Virus record (IMG/VR): IMGVR_UViG_3300030438_000078
Location: 92,994 to 156,993 of that record
Length of the DNA: 64,000 nt
Origin: a virus
Reading direction: 5' to 3' (one strand)
The number at the start of each line of letters is the position of its first letter. Position 1 is the first letter of the stretch. Under the pieces are notes generated by a model. It ran no database searches and was not told the DNA's origin. It saw only the letters and a list, made by a program, of their open reading frames with translations. Position numbers and translations under genes: made by a program. This document shows positions 35,306-52,494 of this stretch, in pieces.

Positions 35306-35385
35306 GTAGAAGTTTTTAAAAGCAAATTTTCCTTCACTAATAAAATAACAAGTTTCTTCTTTATAAGAATCCCAATATGAATAAC

Positions 35386-36239: not shown

Positions 36240-36313
36240 TTTAATATTTACTTTTTATAGCTTTTATAATACTAACAATTCCAACAAATATAATAATTAA
36301 TTACTTCCGTAAC

Positions 36314-37189
36314 TTATTCTGCTTTACTATTTTTGAAAATTTCTTTTATTTGGTCGGCTACTTTTTGAGCGGCTTCTGGGGTATGGAAATAGTTTCCTCT
36401 CTTATATAAAACATCTTCATGAGGACATGCATCTGCAAATTCTCCAACAACATCAAGAGCACCATTTATGGTATAATATTTTCCTCCTTTCCTTGCTCTC
36501 CATCGAATATCCTCAAGTTGTTTTGTTTCAGGATTCCATCTTTTTCCTACTTCTACTAGTTTATTAAATAGCTCTTGTTTTTCAGATTCTGATGCAGGAA
36601 TAATACTATTACAATATTTACTTCCCCCACCAATGCTGTCCAAAATCAATCTACCATTTAAAGACAAAAAAGGAGGAGTAAAGAATCCATCTGTTTCACT
36701 AAAGTTCTTGTTTGGATAAATACATATCATGTAATTCCTTTTATAAGAGTTATTGTTAACATCATCTAATATAACCTTAACAATATCTCCGAATTTAGGA
36801 ATGTAAATATCTTCTAAGCACTTCTTTTCTGGATTCCATTTCTTGTTATATTCTTTCTCAAGTCTTTCAAGGAAGGAAGATTTCTCTTCAGATGTGGCAT
36901 ATCTTATTTTTTCTTTTCTTAAACCAAATCCATATCCATCTTCATTGCATATTGTAATAGAACCATCATTGCTTATTCCAGCATAATACCCATTAAGCCC
37001 TAAATGTATTGCTTCACTATTTGGATTATATATAAATATTGAACCATCTATTACAAGAAAATCTCCATCCTTTGGCTTAAACTTTTCTTTAAATTCGATA
37101 TCAACGATAATTTCTCCATTCTCAATAGAGACATTTGCATGTTCTACTTCCATACCTTTAGGAAGTTTATTTCTGTACGTTTTCTTCAT
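36314..37189 (-). CDS. hypothetical protein with internal duplication
   Basis: 291 aa; two repeats of '..KKWNPE.K.LEDI..'. Confidence 0.45.
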   Translation of the reverse strand: MKKTYRNKLPKGMEVEHANVSIENGEIIVDIEFKEKFKPKDGDFLVIDGSIFIYNPNSEAIHLGLNGYYAGISNDGSITICNEDGYGFGLRKEKIRYATSEEKSSFLERLEKEYNKKWNPEKKCLEDIYIPKFGDIVKVILDDVNNNSYKRNYMICIYPNKNFSETDGFFTPPFLSLNGRLILDSIGGGSKYCNSIIPASESEKQELFNKLVEVGKRWNPETKQLEDIRWRARKGGKYYTINGALDVVGEFADACPHEDVLYKRGNYFHTPEAAQKVADQIKEIFKNSKAE

Positions 37190-37496
37190 TATTTAAATCT
37201 TTTTCGTAAACATATTCTACTAAAAACTCATTATTTCCAAATACCATAGCTTGAAGAACTACAATTTTATCTGCATATATTTTATCGCAAGTTCGTTCAG
37301 CCCACTTCCATTTCTGTTCTACTAATCTTGGATAATCTGAAAATACCCATTCAGCCATTTTGGAGTTATAATGAAATCTTACAAAATTACTTCTTGGATG
37401 AGATTTCTGAATTATTCCAGTACAAGGAGAGTTAAAAGATACTTTATTGGTTATATCTCCAATTTTAAAAGAAGTATATATCATAGTAACTACCAA
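37167..37496 (-). CDS. hypothetical protein
   Basis: 109-aa ORF. Confidence 0.35.
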   Translation of the reverse strand: MVVTMIYTSFKIGDITNKVSFNSPCTGIIQKSHPRSNFVRFHYNSKMAEWVFSDYPRLVEQKWKWAERTCDKIYADKIVVLQAMVFGNNEFLVEYVYEKDLNNEENVQK

Positions 37497-37984
37497 TCTA
37501 TAATAGAAATCATTCTACATGCTCTTTTAATTCTCCTAATGAGAAGGTTTGAAGTTTTCCATATTTAGGAATTTCTGTCCCTCGTTCTTCACAATCTTTT
37601 TTAATACTATCTACAAATGGTGTAGAATAGTTTTCCCATTTTTTATCTGATAATTCCATAATTATCTGTTTTTAATAACTTTCAAATTAAAGAATAAAGC
37701 TGAATTAAACTACCATTTAAAGTCTTAGCACCGACACTCCGTATTCGGTCTCTTTAGAGTAAAAAGATAAACCGCCAATAGGCTGACTCACTTTATTCAA
37801 ACTAGATTTATTCTAATTAACACAATTAACATGCAACCCAGAAATTGTTAATTGATAGCCGTTATCATTTCTATGCATCCCTCATGGAAAGGCACACTAC
37901 AGCCTATGACTAGAGTTGTTTAAGACGCGGCGAATGTTTATAAACGTGGTAACAATTTTAAGACTTAGTCTCTAGTTATAGTAG

Positions 37985-38024
37985 GATAAGTAAGAATCGA
38001 ACTTACAAATACCGTATATCCTAA
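37985..38024 (-). ncRNA. tRNA-like minihelix (acceptor stem + T-arm only, 40 nt)
   Basis: AGGATAT-ACGGTATTT-GTAAG-TTCGATT-CTTAC-TTATCCT; same 7+9+17+7 architecture and GGTATTT linker as the element at 30911-30950. Confidence 0.35.
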
Positions 38025-38088
38025 AATAAAAAATGCTCAGAAGGTGTTTCACAACAGCTCCTAAGCTACACTATTAACTAATTAAAAC

Positions 38089-38472
38089 TTATATTAGACA
38101 CTCTGGTTTTAGAACCAGATAACCTTTTCTCTTGAGAAATTCGATTGCTTCTTTTATTTTTCTCTTTTCCTCTTCTTCTTTTTCTTTGTTGTCTTTCTTC
38201 TTTTCAGTATAGATTTTAGTATATTTATATTGAATTTCTCTCGCTTCAATTAATATATTTTCAACCTTTGACTTGTGAATAGGATTAGGAGAAAATCTTA
38301 CAACTCCGTTGATAGAATGAGCATATCCTTCTTCTAATAAAAGAGAAGCAAACATGTTGTATCCTACATACGTAGAAATTTCTTTCTTGAATTGTGATAC
38401 TTTTAATTCAGGATTTCTCATTCTTAATTGATTAAGTTGTCTTGTTAAGACAGTAACATCTAATTTTTTCAT
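38089..38472 (-). CDS. hypothetical protein with K/E-rich C-terminus
   Basis: 127-aa ORF. Confidence 0.4.
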   Translation of the reverse strand: MKKLDVTVLTRQLNQLRMRNPELKVSQFKKEISTYVGYNMFASLLLEEGYAHSINGVVRFSPNPIHKSKVENILIEAREIQYKYTKIYTEKKKDNKEKEEEEKRKIKEAIEFLKRKGYLVLKPECLI

Positions 38473-38501
38473 AATTTTATCTATTTAACGCGTTAATGAT
38501 G

Positions 38502-38575
38502 TGGATCGTGTAGGGCTTGAACCTACGACCTTCTGCTTGTAAGGCAGATGCTCTAACCGACTGAGCTAACGATCC
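38502..38575 (-). tRNA. tRNA-Val (anticodon UAC)
   Basis: Fully canonical: acceptor GGATCGT/ACGATCC, D-arm GCTC-AGTCGGTTA-GAGC, anticodon arm TCTGC-CTTACAA-GCAGA, T-arm GTAGG-TTCAAGC-CCTAC; 74 nt; GC-rich relative to the genome. Confidence 0.85.
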
Positions 38576-38948
38576 TTATTATACAGTGTGTTGCTACACC
38601 AAAGCATTCCCGTATGTCTTACCAGAAATGAGTTCATAACCTCGCCTTACTACCTTATATACGCTACTTATTAGTAGCTCAAATACTATCTAATGAGTGA
38701 CTTTTCTCAAAATGTATCGGGCAGATTCATGTTGTGGATATCTCCATTATAGCACATCAACAATAGCTATTAACTCTATTATCATTTAGCACTTATATGG
38801 CACTTTTTGCACACTCTTTAAAAGATGGCTACTTCTAAGCCTACTTCCTGTATATGCAGCATCTATATTGATAGTTAATATTTGTTAATTTTCCATAGCT
38901 GCTGCAATTAAATATATTAACAAAAACAGACAAATTAAATACTCCATA

Positions 38949-39191
38949 TCAATCACACCAGGTTTGAAATACTTTCTTAGTTAATGGGTAATTCCCTTTA
39001 AATTTAAAGGAATATCTATAAATTCTAGTTTCTTTAATATGCTTTAACTCATACTTAAAGAAAGGATAGAATATAGTCATTAGGAATATTCCTAATGATA
39101 ACAAAATCATGGAAATTACCTTTACAAGATACTCTATTCCCCATACTGGTAGAGTAAATGCCCATCTAATTATTGTAAGTAATGTAATCAT
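38949..39191 (-). CDS. small membrane protein
   Basis: 80 aa with hydrophobic helices. Confidence 0.35.
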   Translation of the reverse strand: MITLLTIIRWAFTLPVWGIEYLVKVISMILLSLGIFLMTIFYPFFKYELKHIKETRIYRYSFKFKGNYPLTKKVFQTWCD

Positions 39192-39424
39192 AGTTCTACT
39201 GATATTAAGGTTGAATGTAATGTTAATTCAGTCTCAGATATTGGAATCAATGTTCCGAATACTGAAACATATTTCTGTTTTTTAATTACTATAGAAGTAG
39301 AGATAATCTCAACCTCTTTTACATTTTTCTCATGTTGTTCTTTTAAATATTCAGTGTGAATCTTCTTGCTAGCTTCATAATTCTCAGAAGAAGCTAAGCA
39401 ATTACGGTTAATTCTTTTTCTCAT
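39188..39424 (-). CDS. hypothetical protein
   Basis: 78-aa ORF. Confidence 0.3.
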   Translation of the reverse strand: MRKRINRNCLASSENYEASKKIHTEYLKEQHEKNVKEVEIISTSIVIKKQKYVSVFGTLIPISETELTLHSTLISVEL

Positions 39425-39632
39425 ATTGTTCAGTTTTAATTAGTTTTTCAAGTTCTTTTATTTCATTTTCTCTTTCTTTGATATATTGAGGATCAGGTTC
39501 TACTCCATAGAAAGTAGCTCTAGCTTTATATTGGAATATTTCAGCATACTTATCCGCAATTCTATCATGTATTCCCTTTAATTTTTCTACTGTCATAATC
39601 CAAAATATTTGTTGCTCCCCAGCAGGACTCAA
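39408..39632 (-). CDS. hypothetical protein
   Basis: 74-aa ORF; 5' end overlaps the tRNA-like gene at 39614-39694, so the true start may be internal. Confidence 0.3.
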   Translation of the reverse strand: MSPAGEQQIFWIMTVEKLKGIHDRIADKYAEIFQYKARATFYGVEPDPQYIKERENEIKELEKLIKTEQYEKKN

Positions 39633-39694
39633 ACCTGCGACCTACTCGGCACTAATTTCTATACCAAGTGCTCTATCAACTGAGCTATGGAGGA
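39614..39694 (-). tRNA. tRNA-like gene with enlarged (~14-nt) anticodon loop
   Basis: Canonical D-arm (GCTC-AGTTGATA-GAGC) and T-arm (GCAGG-TTTGAGT-CCTGC), acceptor TCCTCCA/TGGGGAG; anticodon stem CTTGG/CCGAG encloses 'TATAGAAATTAGTG' instead of 7 nt; 81 nt. Confidence 0.45.
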
Positions 39695-39881
39695 AAACTT
39701 CTAAATCTTAGAAATAGAAGCTATTCGTATACTTGGGATATAGATAGTACTATATCATCTTCTATTTCATAAACTGAATCAAGATCATATACTCTATCAC
39801 AATCTCCTTCTTCTAGAACGATATCCTTAGATAAATCTTCCTCAGATAATTCTTGTAGAAATTTCAGTAATTCATTTCCCG

Positions 39882-40127
39882 TTATGGTAAATAATTTAAA
39901 GTATATTGCATTATTGTAGTAATATAATCGGTACCTATGATTTTTCCAGACTGTATGAAATAATCTACATCATCAATGCTATTACCTACACTACCACAAA
40001 ACATATTACTTGAAGAGATGTTCTTCCAATAATTTCGCAATTCTTCCTCATTATTACATATGTCAATAGCTTGACATATTGCATGAGTTTTAACATTTAC
40101 TGTAGTTTTAATTAGTTTATACTTCAT
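39882..40127 (-). CDS. hypothetical protein
   Basis: 81-aa ORF. Confidence 0.35.
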   Translation of the reverse strand: MKYKLIKTTVNVKTHAICQAIDICNNEEELRNYWKNISSSNMFCGSVGNSIDDVDYFIQSGKIIGTDYITTIMQYTLNYLP

Positions 40128-40281
40128 AATAGTTAGTTTTTACGACCAAATGTGTAATAATGTATCCATGACCATATTGAAGAAACTGTAAAGCCAGCTT
40201 TCATAACAAATGGTACTTCAATCCAGAACATTCCTACAGTTATAATTGTGCATAATACTGCAACAATTAAGCAAAGATACT

Positions 40282-40479
40282 TCATAACAAATCCCATTCT
40301 CTAAGTGCTTCATTAGGAGTACATCCAGATTTAATAGACTGAAGTACTTCATACTCTAATCCATTCTCTTTTGCAATTTTGATAGCGTCTTCTTTACTCA
40401 TTTTCTCCGCCAATTTTTTGATTTTATTCTTTATAAATTTGCTCATATTTCTCAGCTTCTGATTGTTTATACTTTTCAA
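40282..40479 (-). CDS. hypothetical protein
   Basis: 65-aa ORF. Confidence 0.3.
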   Translation of the reverse strand: MKSINNQKLRNMSKFIKNKIKKLAEKMSKEDAIKIAKENGLEYEVLQSIKSGCTPNEALREWDLL

Positions 40480-40612
40480 TTTGCATTCCTAGGAATATTG
40501 CTACTGCTAAAGCAGCAATCATCCAAAAAATTGATGTATCATCATTTATAGTTATAGCTGCTGTTCCAAGTAAACTCATTACTATAACAAGAAAAATAAT
40601 TAATGCTAACAT
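40424..40612 (-). CDS. small membrane protein
   Basis: 62 aa, two hydrophobic helices. Confidence 0.3.
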   Translation of the reverse strand: MLALIIFLVIVMSLLGTAAITINDDTSIFWMIAALAVAIFLGMQIEKYKQSEAEKYEQIYKE

Positions 40613-40775
40613 ATTTCAAAGCTTAATAATTCCAGAAATCATATTATCTCCAGAATCTCTATATCCAAAAAGAACTGGACTCCATTCTTTTACATATTGT
40701 CTATGCTGTAAAATAGACAAATCTAAATTTTTTGGAGATTGGATATACAATTCTGGAAAATTAGTTAAAAGCCAA

Positions 40776-41171
40776 TCAAATGTTTTTTTCTAATCCTACA
40801 CCTCTAAGAGAAAAAGTAAATGAAATATATTTATTTCTAATTTTACTATTCTTCATTTTACTATAAATATATATCAAATCAGGCCCACAATTTAATATAG
40901 ATTTACAAAAATCACAATCAACAAATGTTATTGGTGGATAATTAGAATTTTGATTTAAAATATCAAATTCTCCTATTAGAGAATTTTTTCTTATTTCGGC
41001 ATTTACTGGATTAAAGTCTACTAATACTACTTGTTTATGATAAGGTAATACTTTTATATACTCTTCTGGATGAGTACCAGCTAATCCTAAAATTGTTTTT
41101 GCCTTATTAATATGTGAAAATAATTTATTTTGTACATATCTTTTTACTTTTGCATCTAAATATTGTTCCAT
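40776..41171 (-). CDS. hypothetical protein
   Basis: 131-aa ORF. Confidence 0.4.
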   Translation of the reverse strand: MEQYLDAKVKRYVQNKLFSHINKAKTILGLAGTHPEEYIKVLPYHKQVVLVDFNPVNAEIRKNSLIGEFDILNQNSNYPPITFVDCDFCKSILNCGPDLIYIYSKMKNSKIRNKYISFTFSLRGVGLEKNI

Positions 41172-41231
41172 TTCAGTTTTAATTAGTTAATCCTGACACA
41201 AATGTGTTTCGTCTTAATTTTCAAAGACTCA

Positions 41232-41486
41232 TCAGAGGATTTTTAAAAGTATCCCCACCGCTGTGGGGATTTTACAAATGTCCACCAAGAACAGACCTTC
41301 CTGTGCCACTATACTTTGAATTGTTTCACAACAACTACATAGTCTCTGGGCATACCCATTATGGTCTTGTAACAATTTAAATATAACATGACAACTTTTT
41401 TGTTTCACAACAATTTTATAAGATGGGTTCTCTATTCTGGAATCGAACCAGATCTTCCCACACTTGTGGTAGTGCCCATACACCAT
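41232..41486 (-). CDS. hypothetical Cys-containing protein
   Basis: 84-aa ORF. Confidence 0.35.
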   Translation of the reverse strand: MVYGHYHKCGKIWFDSRIENPSYKIVVKQKSCHVIFKLLQDHNGYAQRLCSCCETIQSIVAQEGLFLVDICKIPTAVGILLKIL

Positions 41487-41493
41487 TAGAGAA
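41428..41493 (-). ncRNA. truncated tRNA-like element without an anticodon loop
   Basis: Acceptor TTCTCTA/TAGAGAA, T-arm TCTGG-TTCGATT-CCAGA, short D-hairpin, and a CCAC-AAGT-GTGG tetraloop hairpin where the anticodon arm should be; ~66 nt. Confidence 0.3.
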
Positions 41494-42249
41494 ACTCTAC
41501 CTCATATATCTAGAATAAGGTAGAGGATTATTTCTCAACTTAATTCTCAGTTTTCCATTCTGAGAATAAAATTGTGACGTGTATCAACGTTCATATATTT
41601 TACAGGTAGCTAATCTGTAAACGTATACGAATAGATTCGAGATGGAAAATAAAACCTTATGAGTTTCTCTCTTACTATCTAGCTTTAGTGTTTCCACAAT
41701 CGAGCGGCTTATACTCGGCAACTTCTAATACAATAAAAAATACAGTTAAAATGACATACATGGTCTACTGGTATGTCAGCAGTACTTTATATATTGCTAA
41801 TAGATGACCAATTCTATAGCTCAATCCTCCTTACTCATGAGATAAGTTTGCGAACTCTCATTTTCATTAGTAGCAGTTATTTTCAGATAAAGGCTTATCT
41901 GCGTAGCCTGGCGTTAGAGTGAAATAATTTAAAAATTGAATGTCATATATTTCCCAAAAAGTCTATACTATAAAATACAAACTTGGCGGAAAATTTTAAA
42001 ATTTGGGAAAATGCGGAAAAATGGGGTTGGCTTTCGTGCACCAATTTTCTCCACACTCTCCATGTTTTGAGTTCTACAAAATAAAAATAATAAATTTATG
42101 CACGTCTTTCCGTGCTGTCAGATAATAAAACTAAAACTTTAAATATAATTCTCAGAAATTTGCTTTGTTGTTTTGTTTTCTCCGTTAACCAAGATTCCAA
42201 TGATGGAGTTCATATGGATATTTTATTTATACTCATAATATCTTAGAGT

Positions 42250-42447
42250 TTATTCATCTACAAATACAAATCTAATAGCCATAGGTTTGCATTCTGGAGA
42301 CTTTTGATAGATTAAAACATATACCCAAGAAATTCTCGGATAAACAGTGTTGGCACCTATGTCTAATCTTTCATCAGTCTCAGGGTCATAAAAAGCTCCG
42401 TAACTATACAATAATTTTCTAGTCACAAACTTTTCTCGTGTGCTCAT
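42250..42447 (-). CDS. hypothetical protein
   Basis: 65-aa ORF. Confidence 0.3.
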   Translation of the reverse strand: MSTREKFVTRKLLYSYGAFYDPETDERLDIGANTVYPRISWVYVLIYQKSPECKPMAIRFVFVDE

Positions 42448-42501
42448 TACTACAAAGATAATAAAGTAATAAAGAAAAGGGGAGATTATCTCCCCTTAAT
42501 C

Positions 42502-42954
42502 TTACTCTGCGTCATAGTCCTCTACTTCCAAAACATAAGTGTTTTTGTTGTACGCACGTCTGTTTTCAGTTGCGGGAACTTCTTCTGAAGTTTTCTTCTT
42601 CACTACGAAAATAACATTATGGTCAATACACCAAACCAAAAACTTTGCGTTTTCGATAGGTGTTGAGCCGATGGCTGGCGCGTCATCATCTATTTCCACG
42701 CCTGCAAAATGTTTTGCACCGATAGACGCCCCCGTATTAGTGGTGAACGTGATAGGCACGAAGTTGTTGTTATTGTTACTTTGCCCATTGTCTTGCAATT
42801 CGACTTTTGTCATAGAGGCTAGACTAAATTTATCCCCCTTATTCAAGCCTGCAACAACACTCCGCTCATTACCGTTTAAACCTAAACTTTCTACTACCTT
42901 GTTTGCACGTTCTTCTACGCTTACCTGTTTGTTTTTCAATTCATCTAGTGTCAT
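42502..42954 (-). CDS. hypothetical protein
   Basis: 150-aa ORF; last gene of the minus-strand block before the divergent intergenic region. Confidence 0.45.
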   Translation of the reverse strand: MTLDELKNKQVSVEERANKVVESLGLNGNERSVVAGLNKGDKFSLASMTKVELQDNGQSNNNNNFVPITFTTNTGASIGAKHFAGVEIDDDAPAIGSTPIENAKFLVWCIDHNVIFVVKKKTSEEVPATENRRAYNKNTYVLEVEDYDAE

Positions 42955-43251
42955 AACTTTTTGATTTTAGATTAATAATTTGTTTTAGTTTTATATCAAT
43001 ATACAGGGGGGGGACTAAAGGGGTTGCGGACCGTCTCTTAACTTACTCTCATAATTTTCGGAAATCTGAGAACTTAACCTCAAAATATAAATTCGGAAAT
43101 TATAAACACCTAGGGGGCATTTTATATAAAGTACCTATACCAGTTTGCTAAAGATTTAAAGAAATTTGAGAATAATGAAATTAAAATTTTTTAACTTTGT
43201 ATTTAACATTTGCAACCATATTGTTGTATATAACTTAAAACAAAAAGAATT

Positions 43252-43659
43252 ATGATTACAGACTTAGAAACATTGTTAAACGAAGACTAGTTTAGAGAAC
43301 TAGTAAAAGCTATCTATGAAAATAGAGAATATAATTACGAAGAAAATGGATTAAAAATTAATGCCAATTCTAACGATAATTCTCTACAACTATCAATAGC
43401 TTATGATGAAGATAAAAAAGAAAATAGTTTAGTTCAAAAAGAACTTGATAATTTTCAGAATTATTTAAAAGATATGGATGATGATTTATTTACAGAAGTA
43501 TGTGATGCTCTAGATAATGAAGAAATACAAAAAATTCAGAATTGTCTAAACTCTAATAAATTAGAAACAGTAAGAGCTGCTATAGTTAAGTTTAAGAGTG
43601 TTGCGAGAAAGATTATTACTGATAAAATTGTTTATCTTAATAACTTACTATATGCTTGA
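43252..43659 (+). CDS. hypothetical protein containing one in-frame TAG (codon 13)
   Basis: ATG 43252; TAG at 43288-43290; frame stays open and protein-like to TGA at 43657-43659 (136 codons); ORF track only reports the distal 61 aa. Confidence 0.45.
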
Positions 43660-43798
43660 ACAAATTGCTCAAATCAGGATATTGCTTGCACTGGTTAATG
43701 ATAATATGCAGGCAATATCCCATGAAAACGAATCTCTAAGAAAAGAGATTGAAAGATTACAAAAAGAAAATGAAGAACTAAAAAATAAGAAAGATTAA
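43652..43798 (+). CDS. small coiled-coil protein
   Basis: 49 codons, ATG overlaps previous stop (ATGCTTGA); '...SLRKEIERLQKENEELKNKKD'. Confidence 0.35.
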   Translation: MLEQIAQIRILLALVNDNMQAISHENESLRKEIERLQKENEELKNKKD

Positions 43799-43807
43799 AT
43801 AATTAAT

Positions 43808-43881
43808 TGGGGTATGGTCGTAATTGGTTAACGGGTCTGACTCTAAATCAGAAATTCTGGGTTCGAGTCCCAGTACCCCGA
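43808..43881 (+). tRNA. amber suppressor tRNA (anticodon CUA, reads UAG)
   Basis: Acceptor TGGGGTA/TACCCCG, D-loop TAATTGGTTAA, anticodon arm TCTGA-CTCTAAA-TCAGA with CTA at 43843-43845, variable AATT, T-arm CTGGG-TTCGAGT-CCCAG; 74 nt. Confidence 0.8.
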
Positions 43882-43900
43882 CAATTAAAACATTAATAAT

Positions 43901-44221
43901 ATGGTAAAAGCAGCTATCTATTTAAAGAACGGTCTAGTTTGTAAGACAAACAATATTGAAAAGAAATTAAAGAGAGAATCCCAAACAATAGAGATATTAG
44001 AAGAGTGGAAGTTTGATAGTGATTTATCTAAATTAGATGAGAAATATAACTACTGGAATAGAACATTAAATAGGAATACTAAAGAAGAGGAGATTTTAGA
44101 ATCAAGATTATATCGCTATATAAATCCAAAAACTAAATGTACTATTCTCAGTATTTATTCAGATTTAGAACAATGTAAATCTTATATTAGAGACTGGAAT
44201 GAATATGAAAGAATTAAGTGA
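43901..44221 (+). CDS. hypothetical protein
   Basis: 106-aa ORF directly downstream of the suppressor tRNA; no internal TAG. Confidence 0.45.
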   Translation: MVKAAIYLKNGLVCKTNNIEKKLKRESQTIEILEEWKFDSDLSKLDEKYNYWNRTLNRNTKEEEILESRLYRYINPKTKCTILSIYSDLEQCKSYIRDWNEYERIK

Positions 44222-44524
44222 ATACAATAGAGAGATTTAGATTAAATATGCTAAAGTAATGGTAGATGCTTCTATAGAAGCTATTGAGAATATATATAAA
44301 GAATTAAAAGATTCTAATTTATTAAATGAACAATTTGTTTTAGATTGGTTAGATAAATTAAATGAAATAAGTGTAAGATGATAATATTGCTTCTAAGATT
44401 AGAGGTGAGCATGTTGATTATATATTTAGTAATGAAATAAATATTAGGGAAACACTTAAAATACTAGATTGTATAGTCTTAACTACTAGGACTACTTTTG
44501 TGAAAATACTAAAGTAATATATTA

Positions 44525-44803
44525 ATGATAGACTTTAAGAAAACAATAATTAATTTACATGAAAAATTTCCAGAATATGATTTAGACACATTAATAAAAA
44601 TTATAGATGCTATTGTAGAAACAACAGATTACAGTAAATTTAACTATCCTTCTGGAGTTAGACAACCTTGGATAGATACCTCAAAAGTAACTTGTACTCC
44701 AGAATCTAATATATCTTATACCAAAAATACTTCAGATAAATGGATTGATATTATCAGTAGTGGGGTTCAAATCAGAAATCCACACGATACTATTATATAT
44801 TAA
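44525..44803 (+). CDS. hypothetical protein
   Basis: 92-aa ORF; followed by a terminator hairpin. Confidence 0.45.
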   Translation: MIDFKKTIINLHEKFPEYDLDTLIKIIDAIVETTDYSKFNYPSGVRQPWIDTSKVTCTPESNISYTKNTSDKWIDIISSGVQIRNPHDTIIY

Positions 44804-44807: not shown

Positions 44808-44848
44808 AAATACCCAGCCCAGCTTAATTGCTAGGTTGGGTATTTTTA
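44808..44848. terminator. bidirectional intrinsic terminator between convergent genes
   Basis: AAATACCCAGCC-(14 nt loop)-GGTTGGGTATTT followed by TTTTT on the plus strand and A/T-rich on the other; sits between plus gene ending 44803 and minus gene ending 44911. Confidence 0.45.
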
Positions 44849-44910: not shown

Positions 44911-46464
44911 TTACAGAATATTCTTGCCAAAATAGACAGGAACAGTTTTATCATCCATTAGTAATCTTTTCTTTTGTTTTAAAGGGGTATATAACTTTTT
45001 AGTAATTCCACTAGGGGAGTACTCAAACTAATTATATTCAGAATTCAATAATGCATCTTTAAGCTCCTATGAAGTTACAGTTGTCTGATTTCCTTGATAA
45101 ATATCTTCATAATCGGGTCTTGTATCATAAAATCCCTTCTTATTTAAAGGTCTACTACTTACACCCATAGTATAGGGATTCATTCCAATTATTTCTGCTT
45201 GCTATTCTGGAAGTAACTATACCTTACCTCTAAATCCACTAGAAGTGTTACCAAAATTTAAATGACTTCTTCCCATTTGTGTAACATCTATTTCACCAGG
45301 AAAACCTCTATAATCAGTAGCCTTTCTAACCCCAAAAGTCTTTGTAGGAAATTCATAAAGTACTTTTATTCCGATAGGTTCTGACGTACCTAATCCAGAA
45401 AATTCTTCCCAAGGAGTAGTGTGGGATATAAATAGTTTCTCACCCTCTATATTAGTACTAGGTAATTTACTTGATCTTGCCATTCTATAATAATTATCCC
45501 CATTTCTAGTAGATAAAAAATTAGACCATTCAGAATTTCTAAAAGCCCGTGTAGCTTTATCTATATTCTTAGGAGAATTATCTAAATTTCTACTTAATAT
45601 TTTAGCTCTAGCCCATTTATTACCAGCTTTAGCTAATCCATATTCAGCTACTCTACCTAATCCTTTAAATACAGGGTTTAAAGCAACTCCTTCTACATAT
45701 AACTAACCTATAGGGTCTGTACCGCTCATACTTATATTAGTAGTAGAGGTTTGTTCTTTACCATTAGCATCTTTCCATCTTACTACTTCAGAATTTGGTT
45801 GCTAACTTCTAGCATTAGCAACCTGTAATCTATTATATGCTTGAGGGTCTTCTTTCTTCATCTATTCTACTACTTGAGAATATTGAGGACCTTTATATTC
45901 TAATTTACCCCAAGCTGTTTGTTTCTTAGGAATTAATATCCCACCCTTTTTAAACTCTTTATTTTTATTTCCTTGCTCTATATACTACTTTAAGAAATTT
46001 CTCTGATTCTCATTTATCGGTATATAAACAGTATTCATTCCTTTATGTAATCTTTTTGTAAGTTCTGGTCGTAGGTCTAATTTATATTTATGTTCTGCTG
46101 GGTAATAAATAGAATCTCCTTTTATCATTGGTATCCCATTTAATTCCTCTAATACAAAATCTTGAACATCTCCAGGAGTAGTAAACAAAAAAGAATTTAG
46201 TTTTTTATTAAAGGTCTTTTCTAAAGCGCATCTAGTTGCATCACTACAGTTATTAGTAACTAGATTATAATCTTTATGTTTTCCGCCTTTATCTACTGTG
46301 TAGGGTCTATATCTATCATCCTTTGACCCAGTTATAGTTAAACTACTATGTCCAGTAAGTGGATATCTACTAACAAAAGGATAATAAGTATTTAGAACTG
46401 CATATTTAGAAGATTCATCTAATAACTCGTTTCCTTCCTAATATTTTGGTATTAATTTACTCAT
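44911..46464 (-). CDS. TAG-recoded protein (517 codons) with papain-like thiol-peptidase-type 'NNC' motif (PPPDE/LRAT-like)
   Basis: One frame from ATG 46464 to TAA 44911 contains about 10 in-frame TAGs and no TAA/TGA; it fuses ORF-track pieces 45985..46188 and 45217..45483; 'HKDYNLVTNNCSDATRCALEKTF' resembles the Cys box of PPPDE/NlpC-P60-like peptidases. Confidence 0.5.
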
Positions 46465-46669
46465 ATGTATTTATCTTTATATATTTAAGCCAACTAAATG
46501 GTTTTCTATTATCTAAGTATTCTAAGTTATCGTCATTGTTATGTGCTTCTTCTTCTAAGGAAATTTCATGATAACAATTCTTTTGTTTATCTTTAATTCT
46601 GAATAATCTAATTAATAAATACTCTAATCCATACCATATATAAAATCCAATAAATAAAGTTTCTATCAT
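46457..46669 (-). CDS. small membrane protein
   Basis: 70 aa; N-terminal TM 'LFIGFYIWYGLEYLLIRLF'; ends TAA; overlaps next gene start by 8 nt. Confidence 0.4.
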   Translation of the reverse strand: MIETLFIGFYIWYGLEYLLIRLFRIKDKQKNCYHEISLEEEAHNNDDNLEYLDNRKPFSWLKYIKINTYE

Positions 46670-46794
46670 CTATTTAGTATGAATCTTTTCATGATTTATA
46701 TCTATATTTGATAAACTATCTTTAGTAAATAAGATTCCAAATAGATTTATTGCTTTGTATCCTTTAAATGGAATAAATTTATTTTTAATTATTA

Positions 46795-46986
46795 TCATAT
46801 TATATAATACCAATCAGTACGTTCTCTTACTCCTTTATCTTTTAACTATTGAGAATTTAGATGATAATCACCGTTTCTAAAATTCAACTCTTTATCTACA
46901 TAATTCCAGTAAAAATATCCATGCCATCCTGGAAGAAGCAAAGTCTTTCCAGTTACAGCATATAAAGTAGCTTGATTATAATTCAT
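46795..46986 (-). CDS. small aromatic-rich protein with one in-frame TAG
   Basis: ATG at 46986 overlaps the TGA of the holin-like gene (ATGA); TAG at 46846-46848; ends TGA 46795. Confidence 0.35.
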
Positions 46987-47258
46987 AGTATAATTATTAA
47001 TATACCTAATATTATTCCAATTAAATCTGCTATTATATCTTTCCAATCCCATCCAGTACCATTTGATCTGAATTTATCATATAATTCTTTTGATATAGAA
47101 GCAACTATTGCTAATGCTACTCCTACTTTCAAATTAAAAACTCCTACTATTAATACAATAGCAAAATTAATTATCACATGTTTTAATTTATCATTTCCTT
47201 TTATAAGAGAAATAATATTATTTATCCAATTTTTTATTGTTTCCATCCTTATTACCAA
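46983..47258 (-). CDS. holin-like membrane protein
   Basis: 91 aa with two or three TM helices ('FAIVLIVGVFNLKVGVALAIVASI', 'IIADLIGIILGILIIIL') and charged loop; located in a lysis-like cassette. Confidence 0.45.
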   Translation of the reverse strand: MVIRMETIKNWINNIISLIKGNDKLKHVIINFAIVLIVGVFNLKVGVALAIVASISKELYDKFRSNGTGWDWKDIIADLIGIILGILIIIL

Positions 47259-47469
47259 ATTTCCAAATTCCTGTTACACTATCTATACCTAATAGTCCCA
47301 TGCAACACCATAGAACTGTATCTATCATTAATGGAGCTTGTATAACTTCAACTGTACAATATACCAATACTAAAAGACATATTATCCAACCAGTTAATCC
47401 GCAAACTCTCTTAGAAGATACTCCTGATTGAGAAATTACTACTTCCTTCAAAAATTGTATAAATCTCAT
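47218..47469 (-). CDS. membrane protein (holin/spanin-like)
   Basis: 83 aa, two TM helices, basic C-terminus; ATG overlaps TGA of upstream gene (ATGA). Confidence 0.4.
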   Translation of the reverse strand: MRFIQFLKEVVISQSGVSSKRVCGLTGWIICLLVLVYCTVEVIQAPLMIDTVLWCCMGLLGIDSVTGIWKFGNKDGNNKKLDK

Positions 47470-48485
47470 CTCTTAAAATATTGATTTATAACATCAGAGT
47501 AATTATCCACCTACTAAAAAGCATCATTTAATCCTCCGTTAATATATATATTATACATATCCTATATGGATTTAGAACTATTTAATCTACTTTTAAATTT
47601 ATTAGGCATTTTGTAGTAAGCATATAACATTCTATCTTCTGAACCTGGATTATTCTTAAAGAAAGCATGAACTGAATTTCCATACTTTTCTATTAATAGT
47701 TTTTTAGCATCGTTCAATTTCATATTAATAATCTCAGCTGCATCATTCAAAGATAAATTATCTTTTCCCCATACTTTCATTTTATTATCAAACGGTTTTT
47801 TATAAGTTAATCCAGTAATATTTAATCTTTGTTTGACGTCGTCTAAATTATCCAATCCAAAGTTTCCTAGTTTTTTATAAGATGTATTTCCAGGATTTTT
47901 AGTGGGATTTCGGGCAATTACAACACTATCTGGATCGACTGTTAATTTAGAATTAAGCATATTAGTAGCATAGCCTTCGTTTAACAGTACATTTAATAAT
48001 CCCCTCTTATGGGCAACATTAGAGAGTACTCCATTTAACTATTTTCTGTTTTTATCTAAAAATGAATATTTCCAATTTTTATCTATACCATTTTTATCTG
48101 TACCCCATTTAGTATTTACAATTACTTTATAATTAGGAGAGGTAACTTCTCCACCATCTTCATGTTTTTTAATTAAACCATAAGTTCCTTTCTTTAATCT
48201 TTTAATTGTAATCCATCCATTATCTAATATTGACCTATGTCCATCTGGCTTATGAATCTTCGAACCTTCCTCATGTTTCCATTTAGCAGCATTTCTAGCA
48301 AAGTTAGCCCTCTTCTTTTGTAATGGAGTAGTCTTAGGATTTTTTAATACAGCTCTTGCATGCTCCTATACACTTCTTCCTGCCTTTTTAGCAGAAGCTG
48401 TAAACTTTCCTCTGTTCTTCTTTTTAATATGAATACCAGAACCTTTCTTATATATCTAGCATCCAATAAATTCTAAATTGTTCAT
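47466..48485 (-). CDS. TAG-recoded basic protein (340 codons), candidate lysis/virion protein
   Basis: ATG 48485 to TGA 47466 with in-frame TAGs at 48456, 48366, 48039, 47562, 47514 and 47511; extends ORF-track piece 47562..47960 in both directions; very K/R-rich N-terminal third. Confidence 0.45.
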
Positions 48486-48730
48486 AAATTAATTAATTTC
48501 GCATGAATCTTTCTGTGACAATTACTACATACACAAATACACTTATCTAATTCTATTTTAAATAATCTAGTTGGTAAGTATTTAACAGACTGAGATATAT
48601 TATATACTTTATCATGTAAATGATGAACCTCTAAACAACAATATGCTGTTTCTCCACAAATACAACATTTATCTTTTTTATCCTTTAGTAATAATTTATT
48701 ACCATTAATTACTTCTGAAGGCTGTTTCAT
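48482..48730 (-). CDS. HNH endonuclease
   Basis: 'CCICGETAYCCLEVHHLHDK...CSNCHRKIH' HNH zinc-finger motif; 82 aa; ATGA overlap with downstream gene. Confidence 0.6.
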   Translation of the reverse strand: MKQPSEVINGNKLLLKDKKDKCCICGETAYCCLEVHHLHDKVYNISQSVKYLPTRLFKIELDKCICVCSNCHRKIHAKLINL

Positions 48731-48867: not shown

Positions 48868-49782
48868 ATGGATAAAAGTAAAATTACAAAACAGAATGGC
48901 AACATTGCTTTTGAAGAAGAAGCTCACATTTATTATGATGTTACTTGCCCAGAAAAGAAATTTGTATCTGTGACTACGTTAATTCATTCTTTCACACAAC
49001 CCTTTGATAAAGAGTTCTGGTCAGCTTATAAAACATTAGAGAAACTTCTATCTAAGGATGAATGGTCTATAGAAAAAAAGTCTTTATTAAATACTAAGAA
49101 ATTTGATAAGGTCTTACTAGAACTTCATAATATTGATGTGAATGATTTTAATAGAGAGCAGCAATCTATCTTAGATGCATGGGATTTAGAGAATAGAAAC
49201 TCTTGCGAAAGAGGAACTAAAATACATGCAGAATTAGAAAACTCTTTTTATAAAAAGAAGAAGAATATAGATTTAAGCAAATACCAAATTGGTGGAAAGT
49301 TTGAATGTGTTAAGGATTATAATGAGTTAGACTTAGAAAATGGGGTATATCCTGAATATCTTATATCTAGAGTATCTGATGATGGAAAATTGAGAATAGC
49401 CGGTCAAATTGACTTATTAGTTAAAAAAGGAAATAAAATAATTATAGGAGACTGGAAAACTAATAAGAAAATTGAATTAAAATCATTTTTTGATTCTAAG
49501 ACTAAGTGTTCTACAAAAATGAAATATCCTTTAAATAATTTAGATGACTGTAATTATAATCACTATTGTTTACAATTAAGTACATATGCTTGGATGATTC
49601 AAAAATTAAATCCAGAATTTGAGATTGAAGATTTAGTATTAGTACATTTTGACCATAGTGACAATATGACAGTGTATCATTTACCATATTTAAAAGATGA
49701 AGTAATCAGAATGTTAGCTTATTATAAAAAAGAGTCTATTCTTTCTGAAAATAGAAACAAACGTAAACGTATAGAATATTAA
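48868..49782 (+). CDS. putative PD-(D/E)XK-family nuclease (RecB/Cas4-like exonuclease fold)
   Basis: 304 aa; 'GQIDLLVKKGNKIIIGDWKTNKK' matches D..(E/D)xK core; no TAG codons. Confidence 0.45.
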   Translation: MDKSKITKQNGNIAFEEEAHIYYDVTCPEKKFVSVTTLIHSFTQPFDKEFWSAYKTLEKLLSKDEWSIEKKSLLNTKKFDKVLLELHNIDVNDFNREQQSILDAWDLENRNSCERGTKIHAELENSFYKKKKNIDLSKYQIGGKFECVKDYNELDLENGVYPEYLISRVSDDGKLRIAGQIDLLVKKGNKIIIGDWKTNKKIELKSFFDSKTKCSTKMKYPLNNLDDCNYNHYCLQLSTYAWMIQKLNPEFEIEDLVLVHFDHSDNMTVYHLPYLKDEVIRMLAYYKKESILSENRNKRKRIEY

Positions 49783-49784
49783 TT

Positions 49785-50000
49785 ATGTCAACAGAAGAAA
49801 TAAATAAAAGAAGAGACATATGTAATCATTGTGGAATATATGATTCTAATAATGATTTATGCAATGGGCATTTATATATTAATCCAGATAATAATGATGT
49901 AAGTATAAATCCTAAAATTGGATATATAAAAGGATGTGGATGTTTATTAAGTAGAAAGATTCCTAATGAATTGAAACATTGTCCTGCAAAAAAATGGTAA
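49785..50000 (+). CDS. small zinc-ribbon protein
   Basis: 71 aa, 'CNHCG...CNG...CGC...C'. Confidence 0.35.
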   Translation: MSTEEINKRRDICNHCGIYDSNNDLCNGHLYINPDNNDVSINPKIGYIKGCGCLLSRKIPNELKHCPAKKW

Positions 50001-50335
50001 TGGACAAATTATTATATGGAACTCCAGCAGTAGCTAATCCTAATAAAATTTATATATTAACAGATGCCGATTATGTTAAAGTAGAAAATAAAGAAAAGAT
50101 GATAAAAAAATGGATCAAAGCAATATTTATTAAACCTTTTACTATTTTAAAAAGTATATGGTTTAATTTAACAAAAAAACAGGAAGATCTCTCAGAAAAG
50201 AGATTAGAAATATGTAATAACTGTGATAAGAAGATTAACATTAAATATGTAGGAGATATATGTGATATTTGCGGATGCGTATTAGATAATAAAACAAGGA
50301 TTAAAGATGAACATTGTGATTTATGTAAATGGTAA
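49979..50335 (+). CDS. hypothetical protein with C-terminal Cys cluster
   Basis: 118 aa; 'CNNCDKK...CDICGC...CDLCKW'. Confidence 0.35.
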   Translation: MSCKKMVMDKLLYGTPAVANPNKIYILTDADYVKVENKEKMIKKWIKAIFIKPFTILKSIWFNLTKKQEDLSEKRLEICNNCDKKINIKYVGDICDICGCVLDNKTRIKDEHCDLCKW

Positions 50336-50341
50336 TGAATT

Positions 50342-50938
50342 ATGGAAGAATTAAGAACAGAATTAAACAGTAATGAAAAGTTAGCATTAGCTACAACAGG
50401 AATGGAAGGAACAGGAAAACATTTTATTATTAATGGTGAAACTGCTGATAAAACTCTACAAAGAGAAAAGGCAATGACTTTTAATACTAAAGTTGATGAA
50501 TTTAATGATAAATTTGAAAGGCATAATAAAGCATTAGAAGATTTTGCTAAAGATTTATCTGAAGATATAAATGGTCTAGAAATCATGCCTATGTTTGGAT
50601 ATGCTTTGATTAAACCTTTTGACCAGAATCCTTTCCAGAAAGTTAAAGTTACTAATAGTGGTATTATTACAGATTTAGGTGGATATACTCCTACTTATAA
50701 ATCTCATGAAACTGGAGAAATTGAAGAAGAACAACAATATATTAAAGTCGGAACAGTTATTGAAGTTGGACATAAATGTGAATTCTTAAAACCTGGTGAT
50801 GTAGTATTCTACACTATTGCTAGTGAATGTATGGTTCCATTTTATAAACTTGGTTTTGTAGTAGTTAATGAAAACAGAATTCTAGCTGTTGTAAATGAGA
50901 AATTAACAGATAGAAAAAAGAATATTAATAAGGGTTAA
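50342..50938 (+). CDS. GroES-like co-chaperonin with N-terminal extension
   Basis: C-terminal ~100 aa ('MPMFGYALIKPFDQ...VKVTNSGIIT...EIEEEQQYIKVGTVIEVG...LKPGDVVFY...RILAVVNE') has the Hsp10 pattern: mobile loop, roof hairpin, conserved hydrophobic tail. Confidence 0.45.
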   Translation: MEELRTELNSNEKLALATTGMEGTGKHFIINGETADKTLQREKAMTFNTKVDEFNDKFERHNKALEDFAKDLSEDINGLEIMPMFGYALIKPFDQNPFQKVKVTNSGIITDLGGYTPTYKSHETGEIEEEQQYIKVGTVIEVGHKCEFLKPGDVVFYTIASECMVPFYKLGFVVVNENRILAVVNEKLTDRKKNINKG

Positions 50939-51168: not shown

Positions 51169-52461
51169 ATGGCATTAAATTTAGACCCAGAATTTGTACA
51201 TTATGTTTAGGGTATTTATGGAAACGCTGATTTAGATGGTAAAGTAATTAAATAGTTATATTAGACATGGAAGAGTAATCCTTAGTTTATTATAAATGCT
51301 TATAATTAGAAAAATCAAGTTCAGCAAAATAAACCTTAGCTAGCTTCAATGGCTAATAATAATATTAGATAGATTAATAAGCCAGAAGTAGCACAGGATG
51401 ATTTAAGTGGAATTACTAATTTTGGAAACGCATTTAAAATAGCTAGTTAGAGAAATTTAAGTTAGTTTAAATGGAAGGGAACTAAAGCTAATCCTAGTGG
51501 ATTATTTGCAGTTGAATTTGCAACAAAAAAATAGTCTACATCTAAGCCTACTAAGCCTACTAAACCTTCTCCTACTTCAAATAATTCTAACTAGTCAAGT
51601 CCTTCTTCTACTCAAACATGGTCAAGTTTACTTGAAAAAGCTCCGACTCTTGATTTAATAGAATCAGTAAAAGGAAAATCATTTTGGGATGGAACCTTTT
51701 TTCCAGTAGATAAATCTTTAGTTAAAAAGGCTCCTTCTCCTGTAACTAATAGTTCCTCTACTTTGAAACAAGATGTTCCAAGTAGTCCATTGCCAAGAAA
51801 TAGAGAAGCCGAATCATAGGCAAGACAATCAGCTTTTGAAAGAATGACATACTAGAATTGGAGAAGTAATAGACCCTCTGAAAATAGTTATTTTAGAGCA
51901 GGTTATAATTCTATAACTCCATCTTTTTATTAGTAGGGAGGTACTATGTAGCAACAATAGTCTTCTCAAGAATAGGAATTACAAAAAGCTTTCTTAGCAT
52001 ATTTAATTTAGGATGCAGCATAGCAAGGTATTCAATTACAATCAGAACAAGATTTACAAGCATATGCTTAGCAACTTGGAGAAGAAGGTATAAAAGCTAA
52101 GTATCAAGAATTTATGCAGAAAATGCAAGGAGGAACAATGGCTAAACTTGGGACAAAGTTAGAATATATTAAAAAACTAAAAGGAGTATGTCCAGAAGGC
52201 TATGAAATGTCCTATTACAAGGTAGGAGGAAGAATCTGCAAAACTTGTTAGAAAATGCATAAAATGGAAGCTGCATAGAAAGGGAAGAAACTAAATGCAG
52301 TTCAATAGTTTAAGAAAGATATGAAAACTAAAGATGAAGCATCTAGAGATTCTATAGCTATCAATAAATGGCAGGATTAGGATACAATGGCTAAGAAAGG
52401 AAATAAAGGAAACTTTAAAAAAGGAACATGGGTTCCAGATAGAAAGAAATATAAAAAATGA
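51169..52461 (+). CDS. Gln(TAG)-rich hypothetical protein (431 codons)
   Basis: Continuous protein-like frame with more than 25 in-frame TAGs, ends TGA; Ser/Pro/Thr-rich linker and C-terminal Cys motif 'CPEGYEMSYYKVGGRICKTC'. Confidence 0.5.
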
Positions 52462-52494
52462 GATTTAATTATCTTATATAAATGGGTATGATTT

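Follow-up and report, generated by a model that had tools for sequence, protein, structure and literature searches.

We analysed a 64,000-nt stretch of viral DNA, referred to here as the window (G+C content 29.7%), and found on its plus strand a tRNA gene that very probably encodes a glutamine-type amber suppressor of a Zeta-group crAss-like phage, the late genes of which would be written in genetic code 15, where TAG stands for glutamine. The features on which this reading is based are collected in Table 1, and the evidence for the tRNA itself, for the recoding of the late genes, for the conservation of the arrangement among related phages and for glutamine as the inserted residue is presented here in turn.

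The tRNA gene was recovered by two independent programs. ARAGORN, run on the window, returned a 75-nt tRNA with anticodon CTA at 43808-43882 (+), and the Rfam model RF00005 matched 43808-43881 (+) along its full length (model positions 1-71) with a score of 54.0 bits, against a gathering threshold of 29, and an E-value of 8e-9 for the whole window. A first-pass annotation, made from the sequence letters, had called a CUA tRNA at this place on the plus strand and had named a covariance-model search as the analysis that might refute it; the search scored the segment as a tRNA. In the Rfam alignment the loop CUCUAAA takes up model positions 32-38, hence C34-U35-A36, and the register CUA is identical from both programs; the alternative register TCT is unsupported and was excluded by this alignment. 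The tRNA call at 43808-43881 (+) is confirmed.

The acceptor strands UGGGGUA/UACCCCG form, in the ARAGORN drawing, the pairs U1-G72, G2:C71, G3:C70, G4:C69, G5:C68, U6:A67 and A7:U66, the first of which is a U-G wobble, and are followed by discriminator A73, with the CCA end not encoded in the gene. A 5-bp anticodon stem (UCUGA/UCAGA) closes the 7-nt loop C-U-CUA-A-A, which has U33 and the purine A37, and the molecule is completed by a 4-nt variable loop (AAUU), a D-loop of 9-11 nt with G18G19, and the T arm CUGGG-UUCGAGU-CCCAG, with a 5-bp stem and a T-loop that fits GTTCRANYC. Pairing is complete in the acceptor, anticodon and T stems, and both the T-loop GTTCGAGTCC and G18G19 are intact. 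The D-arm is irregular: the Rfam alignment places one extra G between positions 9 and 10, before the D-stem, and the ARAGORN drawing shows a G10-G25 mismatch with residue 26 absent. The suppressor tRNAs of related phages have a canonical D-arm. The earlier description of the tRNA as well folded holds in the covariance-model sense and fails by energy folding, where the MFE structure (-22.8 kcal/mol, with a non-significant z of -1.37) is not the cloverleaf, which evaluates to -20.5; thermodynamic folding was dropped as support for the tRNA on these grounds.

A tRNA-Pyl identity was considered and rejected. ARAGORN gives the name 'Pyl' to every CTA tRNA, and the features of tRNA-Pyl (a 6-bp anticodon stem, a 3-nt variable loop, a small D-loop without G18G19, lack of TPsiC, and a single acceptor-D linker nucleotide) are not those of the suppressor, which has a 5-bp anticodon stem, the 4-nt variable loop AAUU, GG in the D-loop and the T-loop UUCGAGU. 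An exact 44-nt piece of the gene found no match in IMG/VR, and neither megablast of 43000-55000 nor blastn of the tRNA region found one among the 50,697 phage records of INPHARED; the allele is therefore absent from those collections. A blastn search of the tRNA against E. coli genomes also gave no match, in a database too large for a 74-nt query.

ARAGORN located ten tRNA genes across the window, the suppressor and nine others that are all encoded on the minus strand, and Rfam contributed three extra minus-strand tRNA-like matches (34575, 24457 and 39615). The total thus comes to 13 tRNA or tRNA-like genes, and the suppressor, the sole CUA tRNA within the window, is also the only one on the plus strand, as had been claimed, the remaining 12 all being on the minus strand.

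Table 1. Features of the window (positions count from its first letter; strand given as + or -)
Feature	Position	Strand	Details	Basis
Standard-code block	1..42954	-	replication genes and 12 tRNA or tRNA-like genes	
Toprim (Toprim_2), primase-like	1584-2594	-	in standard-code block	Pfam
AAA_24 ATPase	4102-4797	-	in standard-code block	Pfam
DnaB-like helicase (DnaB_C)	4797-5915	-	in standard-code block	Pfam
Helicase C-terminal domain (Helicase_C)	6794-7483	-	in standard-code block	Pfam
Phage tRNA-Gln(UUG)	30327..30398	-	ordinary Gln decoder	ARAGORN, Rfam
Decayed homologue of second suppressor tRNA	41424..41493	-	relatives carry CUA or UUA	ARAGORN
RAGATH-14 RNA	41522..41726	-	143.9 bits, E 6e-27, just under gathering threshold of 149.1	Rfam
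Divergent intergenic region	42955..43251		between replication block and tRNA-bearing plus-strand array	
TAG-poor small-ORF array	43252..44803	+	holds the suppressor tRNA	
ORFs of the array	43252-43659; 43652-43798; 43901-44221; 44525-44803	+	one TAG in the first, at codon 13	
Amber-suppressor tRNA	43808..43881	+	anticodon CUA; apparently of Gln(CUG)-derived type	ARAGORN, Rfam RF00005, covariation, tRNA-Gln(CUG) identity
Terminator-like hairpin	44817..44841	+	10-pair stem, T-run tail ATTTTTAT; end of tRNA array	
Convergent cassette	44911..48730	-	seven ORFs; 17 in-frame TAGs in 1,306 codons	
TAG-free genes	48868..50938	+		
PD-(D/E)XK exonuclease	48868-49782	+	followed by two small Cys-rich ORFs	
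GroES-like protein	50342-50938	+		
TAG-poor genes, combined	around tRNA and 48.9-51.2 kb	+	3 TAGs in 1,141 codons	
TAG-recoded late (virion) module	51169..63691 (51.2-63.7 kb)	+	134 in-frame TAGs in 3,796 codons; 35 per 1,000; 56% of CAA+CAG+TAG	
TerL	53058-55169 plus 55496-55714	+	split by insert of ~326 nt	
Portal	55945-58128	+	30 TAGs	
Head-fibre-like protein	62795-63691	+		

The first-pass annotation had placed the tRNA at an early/late junction, between the end of a minus-strand early block and the TAG-recoded genes. The early character of the block up to 42954 is supported by the DnaB_C, Toprim, AAA_24 and Helicase_C genes that it carries, together with LAGLIDADG and HNH endonucleases, and the tRNA does stand at a switch of strand and module. 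The placement is correct in substance and needs two qualifications: the first recoded genes downstream lie on the minus strand, in the cassette at 44911-48730 with its 17 TAGs, and the TAG-free stretch at 48868-50938 comes before the heavily recoded genes. Spacers of only 9 nt and 19 nt separate the tRNA from the preceding and the following ORF, respectively. The same order around the tRNA was found in two relatives, loci L003 and L032, where a minus-strand block is followed by a 133-aa plus-strand ORF, the tRNA, small ORFs, a 304-aa nuclease, a 200-aa GroES-like protein, the recoded genes, TerL and the portal gene.

Two ORFs of the array, 43252-43659 and 43901-44221, were scanned and gave no Pfam or PHROG match. 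Pfam scans of 30 ORFs yielded neither a release factor nor an aaRS, and Rfam detected no ribozyme beside the suppressor tRNA, nor any HDV-like match at E<=5 in 42900-45000. The convergent cassette encodes proteins of 517 aa and 339 aa, two small hydrophobic proteins, a phrog_15610 'protease' and an HNH endonuclease. A lysis role for this cassette is possible; the name 'lysis cassette' was not adopted because the Pfam and PHROG scans yielded no holin or endolysin annotation.

The recoding of the late genes is seen most directly in the ORF maps. Summed over ORFs of at least 150 aa, the window encodes 9,822 aa under the standard code vs 15,474 aa with TAG read as sense, and almost all of this gain lies beyond 44.9 kb; reading TGA as sense adds little. 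Under the standard code, long ORFs cover the first 43 kb or so of the minus strand and mostly vanish further on. The plus-strand genes between 51169 and 63691 contain 25, 5, 14, 30, 6, 2, 21, 24 and 7 in-frame TAGs, respectively, and the recoded cassettes together hold at least 151. With TAG translated as Q, the 716-aa TerL product of 53058-55208, in which 14 TAGs are read through, aligned with positions 77-720 of the 758 in phrog_6681 (E 1e-63), and the 727-aa portal product of 55945-58128 aligned with positions 51-761 of the 827 in phrog_6547 (E 3e-51). Full-length PHROG matches for both proteins appear only when TAG is sense, and these matches together with the 134 TAGs of the module bear out the claim that the genes downstream of the tRNA are recoded: the late genes are untranslatable unless TAG is read as sense. 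Nothing in Rfam, its intron families included, matched the insert of about 326 nt within TerL.

In the early region, reading TAG as sense leaves the ORF map nearly as it is under the standard code. The count of zero TAGs in the early ORFs arises partly by construction, the standard code having been used to define these ORFs. On the minus strand, 57 ORFs of at least 80 aa end before 43 kb; six of them terminate in TAG, and in each of the six a backup TAA or TGA follows at a distance of 2-28 codons, so that read-through would cost these genes little. The ORF just upstream of the suppressor tRNA has a TAG of its own, which counts against the reading proposed here.

Related phages were collected by a TerL search of IMG/VR, which returned 71 loci; the closest are 72-83% identical to the window TerL (83% for the nearest relative) and lie on contigs of approximately 180-192 kb. 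Identity to Crassvirales terminases is 25-28%, and to two unannotated human-gut phage scaffolds 44-46%. The type of TerL and portal, the 180-192 kb size of the relatives and the gene content identify the phage as a member of this type: the Zeta features of a DnaG-type primase, DnaB and SNF2 helicases, an AAA+ ATPase, many tRNAs, introns and homing endonucleases have counterparts in the Toprim_2, DnaB_C, Helicase_C, AAA_24, LAGLIDADG and HNH matches, the 13 tRNA or tRNA-like genes and the split TerL. We therefore regard it as a Zeta-group crAss-like phage with amber recoding. ARAGORN was run on 60 of the 71 loci, and in 52 of these 60 a plus-strand CUA tRNA was found 5.2-9.4 kb upstream of TerL, a distance that amounts to 9.2 kb in the window. 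The position of the CUA tRNA is conserved across the clade.

Nine distinct suppressor variants were obtained besides the window's own, which is 52-69% identical to its syntenic homologues. For covariation analysis, eight distinct family members were aligned with the window tRNA-Gln(UUG). Across this alignment 97.9% of the cells pair and 13 of the 21 pairs change on both sides, vs 5-7 two-sided pairs in slid controls and with none of 500 shuffles reaching the observed result, the loci being related and the counts not independent events. Compensation is clear in the acceptor stems UGGGGUA, UGCCCUA, UCUCUUA and UGGGGUG, each of which comes with its own complement. That 52 of 60 loci retain the tRNA at this position, with such compensatory changes, argues for purifying selection on its structure and puts the tRNA call far beyond chance.

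The same observations weigh on the alternative that survives best, namely that the window tRNA is decaying or inactive and that the late TAG codons are decoded by a suppressor located elsewhere in the genome, supplied by the host or contributed by a co-infecting phage. We consider this unlikely. The irregular D-arm, the wobble at the first acceptor pair and the low identity to syntenic homologues would all fit a decaying copy, but the 54-bit score, the paired stems, U33 and A37, G18G19, the T-loop and the CUA anticodon have all been preserved, and the site has been kept by the relatives with compensatory changes. A neighbouring second suppressor has clearly decayed in the window phage, recoded crAss-like genomes without a detectable suppressor are on record (PMC7886860), and the window represents 64 kb of a genome of probably about 185 kb, so other suppressors, RF2 or an aaRS could lie outside it; against this stand the in-frame TAGs of the window, at least 151 in number, which demand a decoder.

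A different purpose has been proposed for the CTA suppressors of Zeta phages that keep such a tRNA without recoding, namely damage to the host (PMC12386605). Applied to the window, this would mean that the suppressor chiefly causes read-through of host UAG stops, as an anti-defence or takeover function, with the decoding of the phage's own genes being secondary. It would be in keeping with relatives that carry two suppressors, some of them with a UUA anticodon yet no in-frame TAA in TerL, but we judge it very unlikely as the chief role, given that TerL, portal and seven other late genes of the window need UAG decoding. The phage thus has to decode its own UAG codons irrespective of any further effect of the tRNA, and both roles could coexist.

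The meaning of TAG was read from nine reference loci, comprising eight IMG/VR relatives (50-57% TerL identity) and MT835470, which lack in-frame TAG in TerL and for this codon essentially follow the standard code. Aligned with these loci, the recoded proteins of the window give 93 TAG columns comprising 465 cells, and Gln occupies 46.7% of the cells vs a background of 4.1%, an 11.3-fold enrichment. Q is the majority residue in 38 of the 93 columns, K coming next with 13, and Gln is invariant at seven portal TAG columns and at one TerL column. Lys is the second commonest residue at these columns (10.8%) with an enrichment of 1.4-fold, and Glu is enriched 1.2-fold. Within the recoded clade, TAG swaps almost only with Q. 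The remaining 53% of aligned cells are non-Gln, which is expected if TAG drifts into variable positions and is not proof. The agreement with Gln in standard-code homologues indicates that TAG in the late genes would be read as glutamine.

The body of the tRNA is also of the glutamine type. Leaving out the anticodon, the suppressor is 72% identical to a bacterial tRNA-Gln(CUG), with which it shares an acceptor stem (UGGGGUA/UACCCC) and an anticodon stem (CUGA/UCAG), as well as UGGGGUAUGGU at the 5' end and GGUUCGAGUCC..GUACCCC in the 3' part; its identity to a tRNA-His example carrying the family D-arm motif is 59%. This 20-nt D-arm motif is common to the relatives' suppressors and the window tRNA-Gln(UUG), and among the 120 bacterial loci listed for it, mostly from Actinomycetota, 112 are tRNA-Gln(CUG), 3 are tRNA-His and 1 is a CUA tRNA. 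These similarities clearly point to descent of the suppressor from a tRNA-Gln(CUG), from whose anticodon it would differ by one base (CUG to CUA, at position 36).

A glutamine identity had been hinted at in the first-pass annotation, and both the residues at the TAG columns (46.7% vs 4.1%) and the 72% identity to a bacterial tRNA-Gln(CUG) now support it. The argument originally offered, a resemblance in architecture to the window tRNA-Gln(UUG), proved weak: identity outside the anticodon is 51-55%, no closer than to other tRNAs, and this likeness was dropped as an argument for Gln because global identity does not single out Gln(UUG). Comparison with the identity elements of GlnRS, which had been suggested as a check, gave a divided answer, with U1 in a weak 1:72 pair, G2:C71 and G3:C70 in agreement and position 73, where the suppressor has A rather than G, in disagreement. 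Throughout the suppressor family U1 is invariant and 1:72 is always U-A or U-G. E. coli GlnRS prefers discriminator G73, and the bacterial tRNA-Gln example has this nucleotide. A73 is present in all of the relatives' suppressors, as in the phage tRNA-Gln(UUG), and the discriminator rule of the host may therefore differ from that of E. coli.

It is barely credible that Lys, Glu, Tyr, pyrrolysine or some further residue is inserted by the tRNA at UAG instead of Gln: the 'tRNA-Pyl' label from ARAGORN, the second rank of Lys at the TAG columns and A73 in place of the G73 of E. coli tRNA-Gln could be cited for it, but the enrichment is 11.3-fold for Gln and no more than 1.4-fold for Lys and 1.2-fold for Glu, the recoded clade alternates TAG almost only with Q, the tRNA body is of the Gln type and shows no tRNA-Pyl hallmark, and Gln was found by proteomics on related phages (PMC9523058).

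Based on these results, we propose the following course of events for a glutamine-type suppressor. After infection, the replication block would be translated in the standard code of the host, and the tRNA would be transcribed as part of the plus-strand array, which starts at the divergent junction, and matured by the RNase P and 3'-end enzymes of the host. Since CCA is not encoded, we propose that it is added by a host enzyme. The tRNA would presumably be charged with glutamine by the host GlnRS and would then compete with release factor 1 at UAG, with TerL, portal and the other recoded virion proteins being made only after enough suppressor had accumulated. The early genes would be insulated from its action, in that they avoid internal TAG and carry backup stops. 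The first-pass annotation had stated that expression of the tRNA licenses translation of the late genes; in line with a published model, and going beyond what can be read in the DNA, we infer that it may do so.

Early expression of the suppressor tRNA is assumed here. The divergent intergenic region at 42955-43251 contains one Bacteroidetes-type promoter-like match, TTTG-N23-TAACTTTG at 43165-43199, which is statistically not meaningful; the Bacteroidetes -33/-7 motif is not enriched in the window (7 occurrences vs 4.0 expected, with 16 of 100 shuffles reaching 7), and a sigma-70 scan gave 9 sites vs 14.5 in shuffles, i.e. below expectation. As both scans are at or below chance, no promoter or timing class can be assigned to the tRNA.

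The finding is an instance of a described system in a described clade and is, in that sense, already known. Yutin et al. (2021) defined the Zeta group as crAss-like phages that have genomes of 145-192 kb, are densely populated with introns and inteins and encode many tRNAs, and reported suppressor tRNAs and the reassignment of TAG to Gln or of TGA to Trp, mainly in late phage genes (PMC7886860). Zeta genomes with CTA suppressors and amber suppression have been tabulated (PMC12386605), and Borges et al. proposed the code-switch model (bioRxiv 10.1101/2021.08.26.457843). Metaproteomics by Peters et al. (2022) showed Gln at the recoded TAG codons of two crAss-like phages, of which one is 191 kb long, and suppressor tRNAs are marked on their phage maps (PMC9523058). 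The window suppressor resembles those of the code-15 Zeta phages in its lineage, its CTA anticodon, the restriction of TAG to late genes, the reading of TAG as Gln and a genome style rich in tRNAs and introns; unlike them, it is a divergent allele (52-69% identity) with U1-G72 and, in the Rfam alignment, an extra D-arm nucleotide. What is particular to the window is minor, and consists of this divergent allele, absent from IMG/VR and INPHARED, with its U-G first pair and odd D-arm.

The 'code-change module' of the Jade, Lak and Agate phages (Borges et al., bioRxiv 10.1101/2021.08.26.457843) is similar in that its suppressor lies in DNA compatible with the standard code, just upstream of recoded late genes, and is the proposed timer of late expression. 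In contrast to that module, no RF or aaRS gene adjoins the tRNA of the window or occurs among its 30 Pfam-scanned ORFs, and the neighbouring recoded cassette gave no lysis annotation with Pfam or PHROG. The tRNAs associated with Theta (HDV-like) ribozymes (Kienbeck et al. 2024, PMC10879173) likewise include a suppressor in a recoded gut phage, unlike which the window suppressor has no flanking ribozyme and sits between spacers of 9 nt and 19 nt. Theta ribozymes may be missing from Rfam, and the shortness of the spacers is the stronger argument against a ribozyme here. In E. coli supE (glnV), the anticodon of a tRNA-Gln is changed from CUG to CUA at position 36, and the product inserts Gln at UAG against RF1. 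The window tRNA is like supE in its tRNA-Gln body, a UGGGGUA/UACCCC-type acceptor with a weak first pair, and G2:C71 and G3:C70. It differs in being phage-encoded and required, supE being a chromosomal mutant allele, in having A73 instead of G73 and a different D-arm, and in having more than 150 sense TAG codons to decode, where supE acts on rare nonsense mutations.

For annotation, the practical consequence is that TerL, portal and the virion module fragment when TAG is not read as Gln, and a phage of this type is easily missed or mis-annotated. For biology, the window adds another well-behaved case to those published for crAss-like phages of the Zeta group, whose late genes switch to code 15, with modest additions in the apparent descent from tRNA-Gln(CUG), the conserved position at the junction and the backup stops after early TAG. 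By itself the finding opens no new question; the RAGATH-14 RNA and the second suppressor tRNA of the clade form a lead with some potential.

In related phages, a second suppressor tRNA lies on the minus strand about 2.1 kb upstream, with the anticodon CUA or, in a subset, UUA; both anticodons occur among near-identical phages. RAGATH-14 precedes this tRNA by approximately 30-86 nt in 31 of 32 loci. The corresponding tRNA of the window (41424-41493) has an anticodon loop of 6 nt and no Rfam tRNA match at E<=1, and the RAGATH-14 RNA is found 29 nt upstream of it in the direction of transcription. No function is known for RAGATH-14. Within IMG/VR, a strict RAGATH-14 sequence pattern was matched by no phages beyond this clade, and a literature search for 'RAGATH-14' gave no match, so the association with a tRNA could not be generalised.

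It is conceivable, though doubtful, that the clade runs a two-suppressor code switch in which the early-strand second suppressor travels as a 3' passenger of the RAGATH-14 RNA. RAGATH-14 could then act as a processing or gating element for release of the suppressor, and hence for the timing of the switch. If this were true, the plus-strand tRNA would be the sole switch of the window phage, as the second tRNA has decayed while RAGATH-14 has been kept, and RAGATH-14 would have a function besides delivery of a tRNA. A hammerhead core (CUGAUGAG...CGAAAC) was also observed on the minus strand at 41206-41235.

The late module (51169-63691, +) and the early/replication block (1-42954, -) were found to differ in their use of glutamine-type codons, with CAA, CAG and TAG together amounting to 63.5 per 1,000 codons in the former and 29.6 in the latter. 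Decoding of TAG as Gln would make the late proteins twice as rich in this residue as the early ones. About half of the TAG columns correspond to a residue other than Gln in homologues that use the standard code, and this suggests that TAG has spread into variable positions. In the early block, all six ORFs that end on TAG carry a second stop (TAA or TGA) 2-28 codons further on, an arrangement that fits with read-through being tolerated once the suppressor is active.

Coordinates of the features discussed, in the window unless a related phage locus (L003, L005) is named
Feature	Position	Strand	Remark
TerL insert	55170-55495	+	Break in homology to relatives' TerL
LAGLIDADG endonuclease ORF	8193-9050	-
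Helicase ORF	6794-7483	-	C-terminal domain only
238-aa ORF	14578-15294	-	Six in-frame TAGs; weak DUF723 match (homing-endonuclease-like)
Early-block ORFs with TAG stop	1584-2594, 8193-9050, 11238-11798, 14208-14465, 29211-29546, 35386-35646	-
RAGATH-14 RNA (RF03145) and tRNA behind it	41522-41726 and 41424-41493	-	RAGATH-14, 143.9 bits
RAGATH-14/suppressor-type tRNA, L003	1598-1890	-
RAGATH-14/suppressor-type tRNA, L005	708-1010	-
UUA-anticodon second suppressor tRNA, L005	707-777	-
Hammerhead ribozyme core	41201-41256 (core 41206-41235)	-	CUGAUGAG-stem-CGAAAC
tRNA-like gene	34575-34644	-	Above Rfam threshold, missed by ARAGORN
tRNA-like gene	39615-39694	-	Above Rfam threshold, missed by ARAGORN
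tRNA-like gene	24457-24529	-	Above Rfam threshold, missed by ARAGORN

An interruption is present in the TerL gene: the likeness of the window TerL to that of its relatives ends at about 55169 and picks up in a different frame at 55496-55714. The intervening ~326 nt hold no ORF and matched no Rfam intron family; they are probably a small self-splicing intron, of a kind reported to be frequent in Zeta crAss-like phages. The LAGLIDADG ORF lies directly upstream of an ORF with only a helicase C-terminal domain, which suggests that an intron or intein divides a gene for an SNF2-type helicase at 6794-9050 (-). The 238-aa ORF, around which the replication block is otherwise TAG-free, resembles a mobile gene that uses the code of the late genes.

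The second, minus-strand suppressor-type tRNA of the relatives is preceded at 27-86 nt by a RAGATH-14 RNA in 31 of the 32 clade loci. RAGATH-14 scored 157-183 bits in these relatives, and it is retained in the window, where the tRNA behind it has decayed to a 6-nt anticodon loop and gave no match to the Rfam tRNA model. RAGATH-14 is not known to have a function, and a full-text search found no mention of it in papers. Second-suppressor copies with anticodon loops of 6 nt or 8 nt were also seen in L015, L016 and L027. UUA (ochre type) replaces CUA as the second suppressor's anticodon in L005, L012, L013, L018, L020, L048, L059, L063 and L065, a subset of near-identical relatives. Despite this, TAA is the main stop codon, and the TerL ORFs of the UUA-bearing relatives contain no in-frame TAA.

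The decayed tRNA is followed, after approximately 170 nt, by a hammerhead core, which scored only 23 bits with the Rfam type III model (gathering threshold 48.5). The identical core is present in L003 (226-255) and L027 (1916-1945), and a RAGATH-1 hammerhead scored above threshold in L032.

Among the matches listed for the Gln-type D-arm motif in bacterial genomes (L089-L208), one bacterial/MAG contig holds a CUA-anticodon tRNA (TCCCTTATGGTGTAATGGTCAGCAC...) closely resembling the plus-strand suppressor of related phages. This contig, which could indicate a host, is probably phage or prophage sequence within a genome bin.

Lastly, the anticodon arm is non-canonical in all three Rfam-only tRNA-like genes of the early block: the loop is shortened in one of them and is 6 nt long (UGUUAA, resembling that of Asn GUU) in another, and the remaining gene carries a 16-nt insert that may be an intron.
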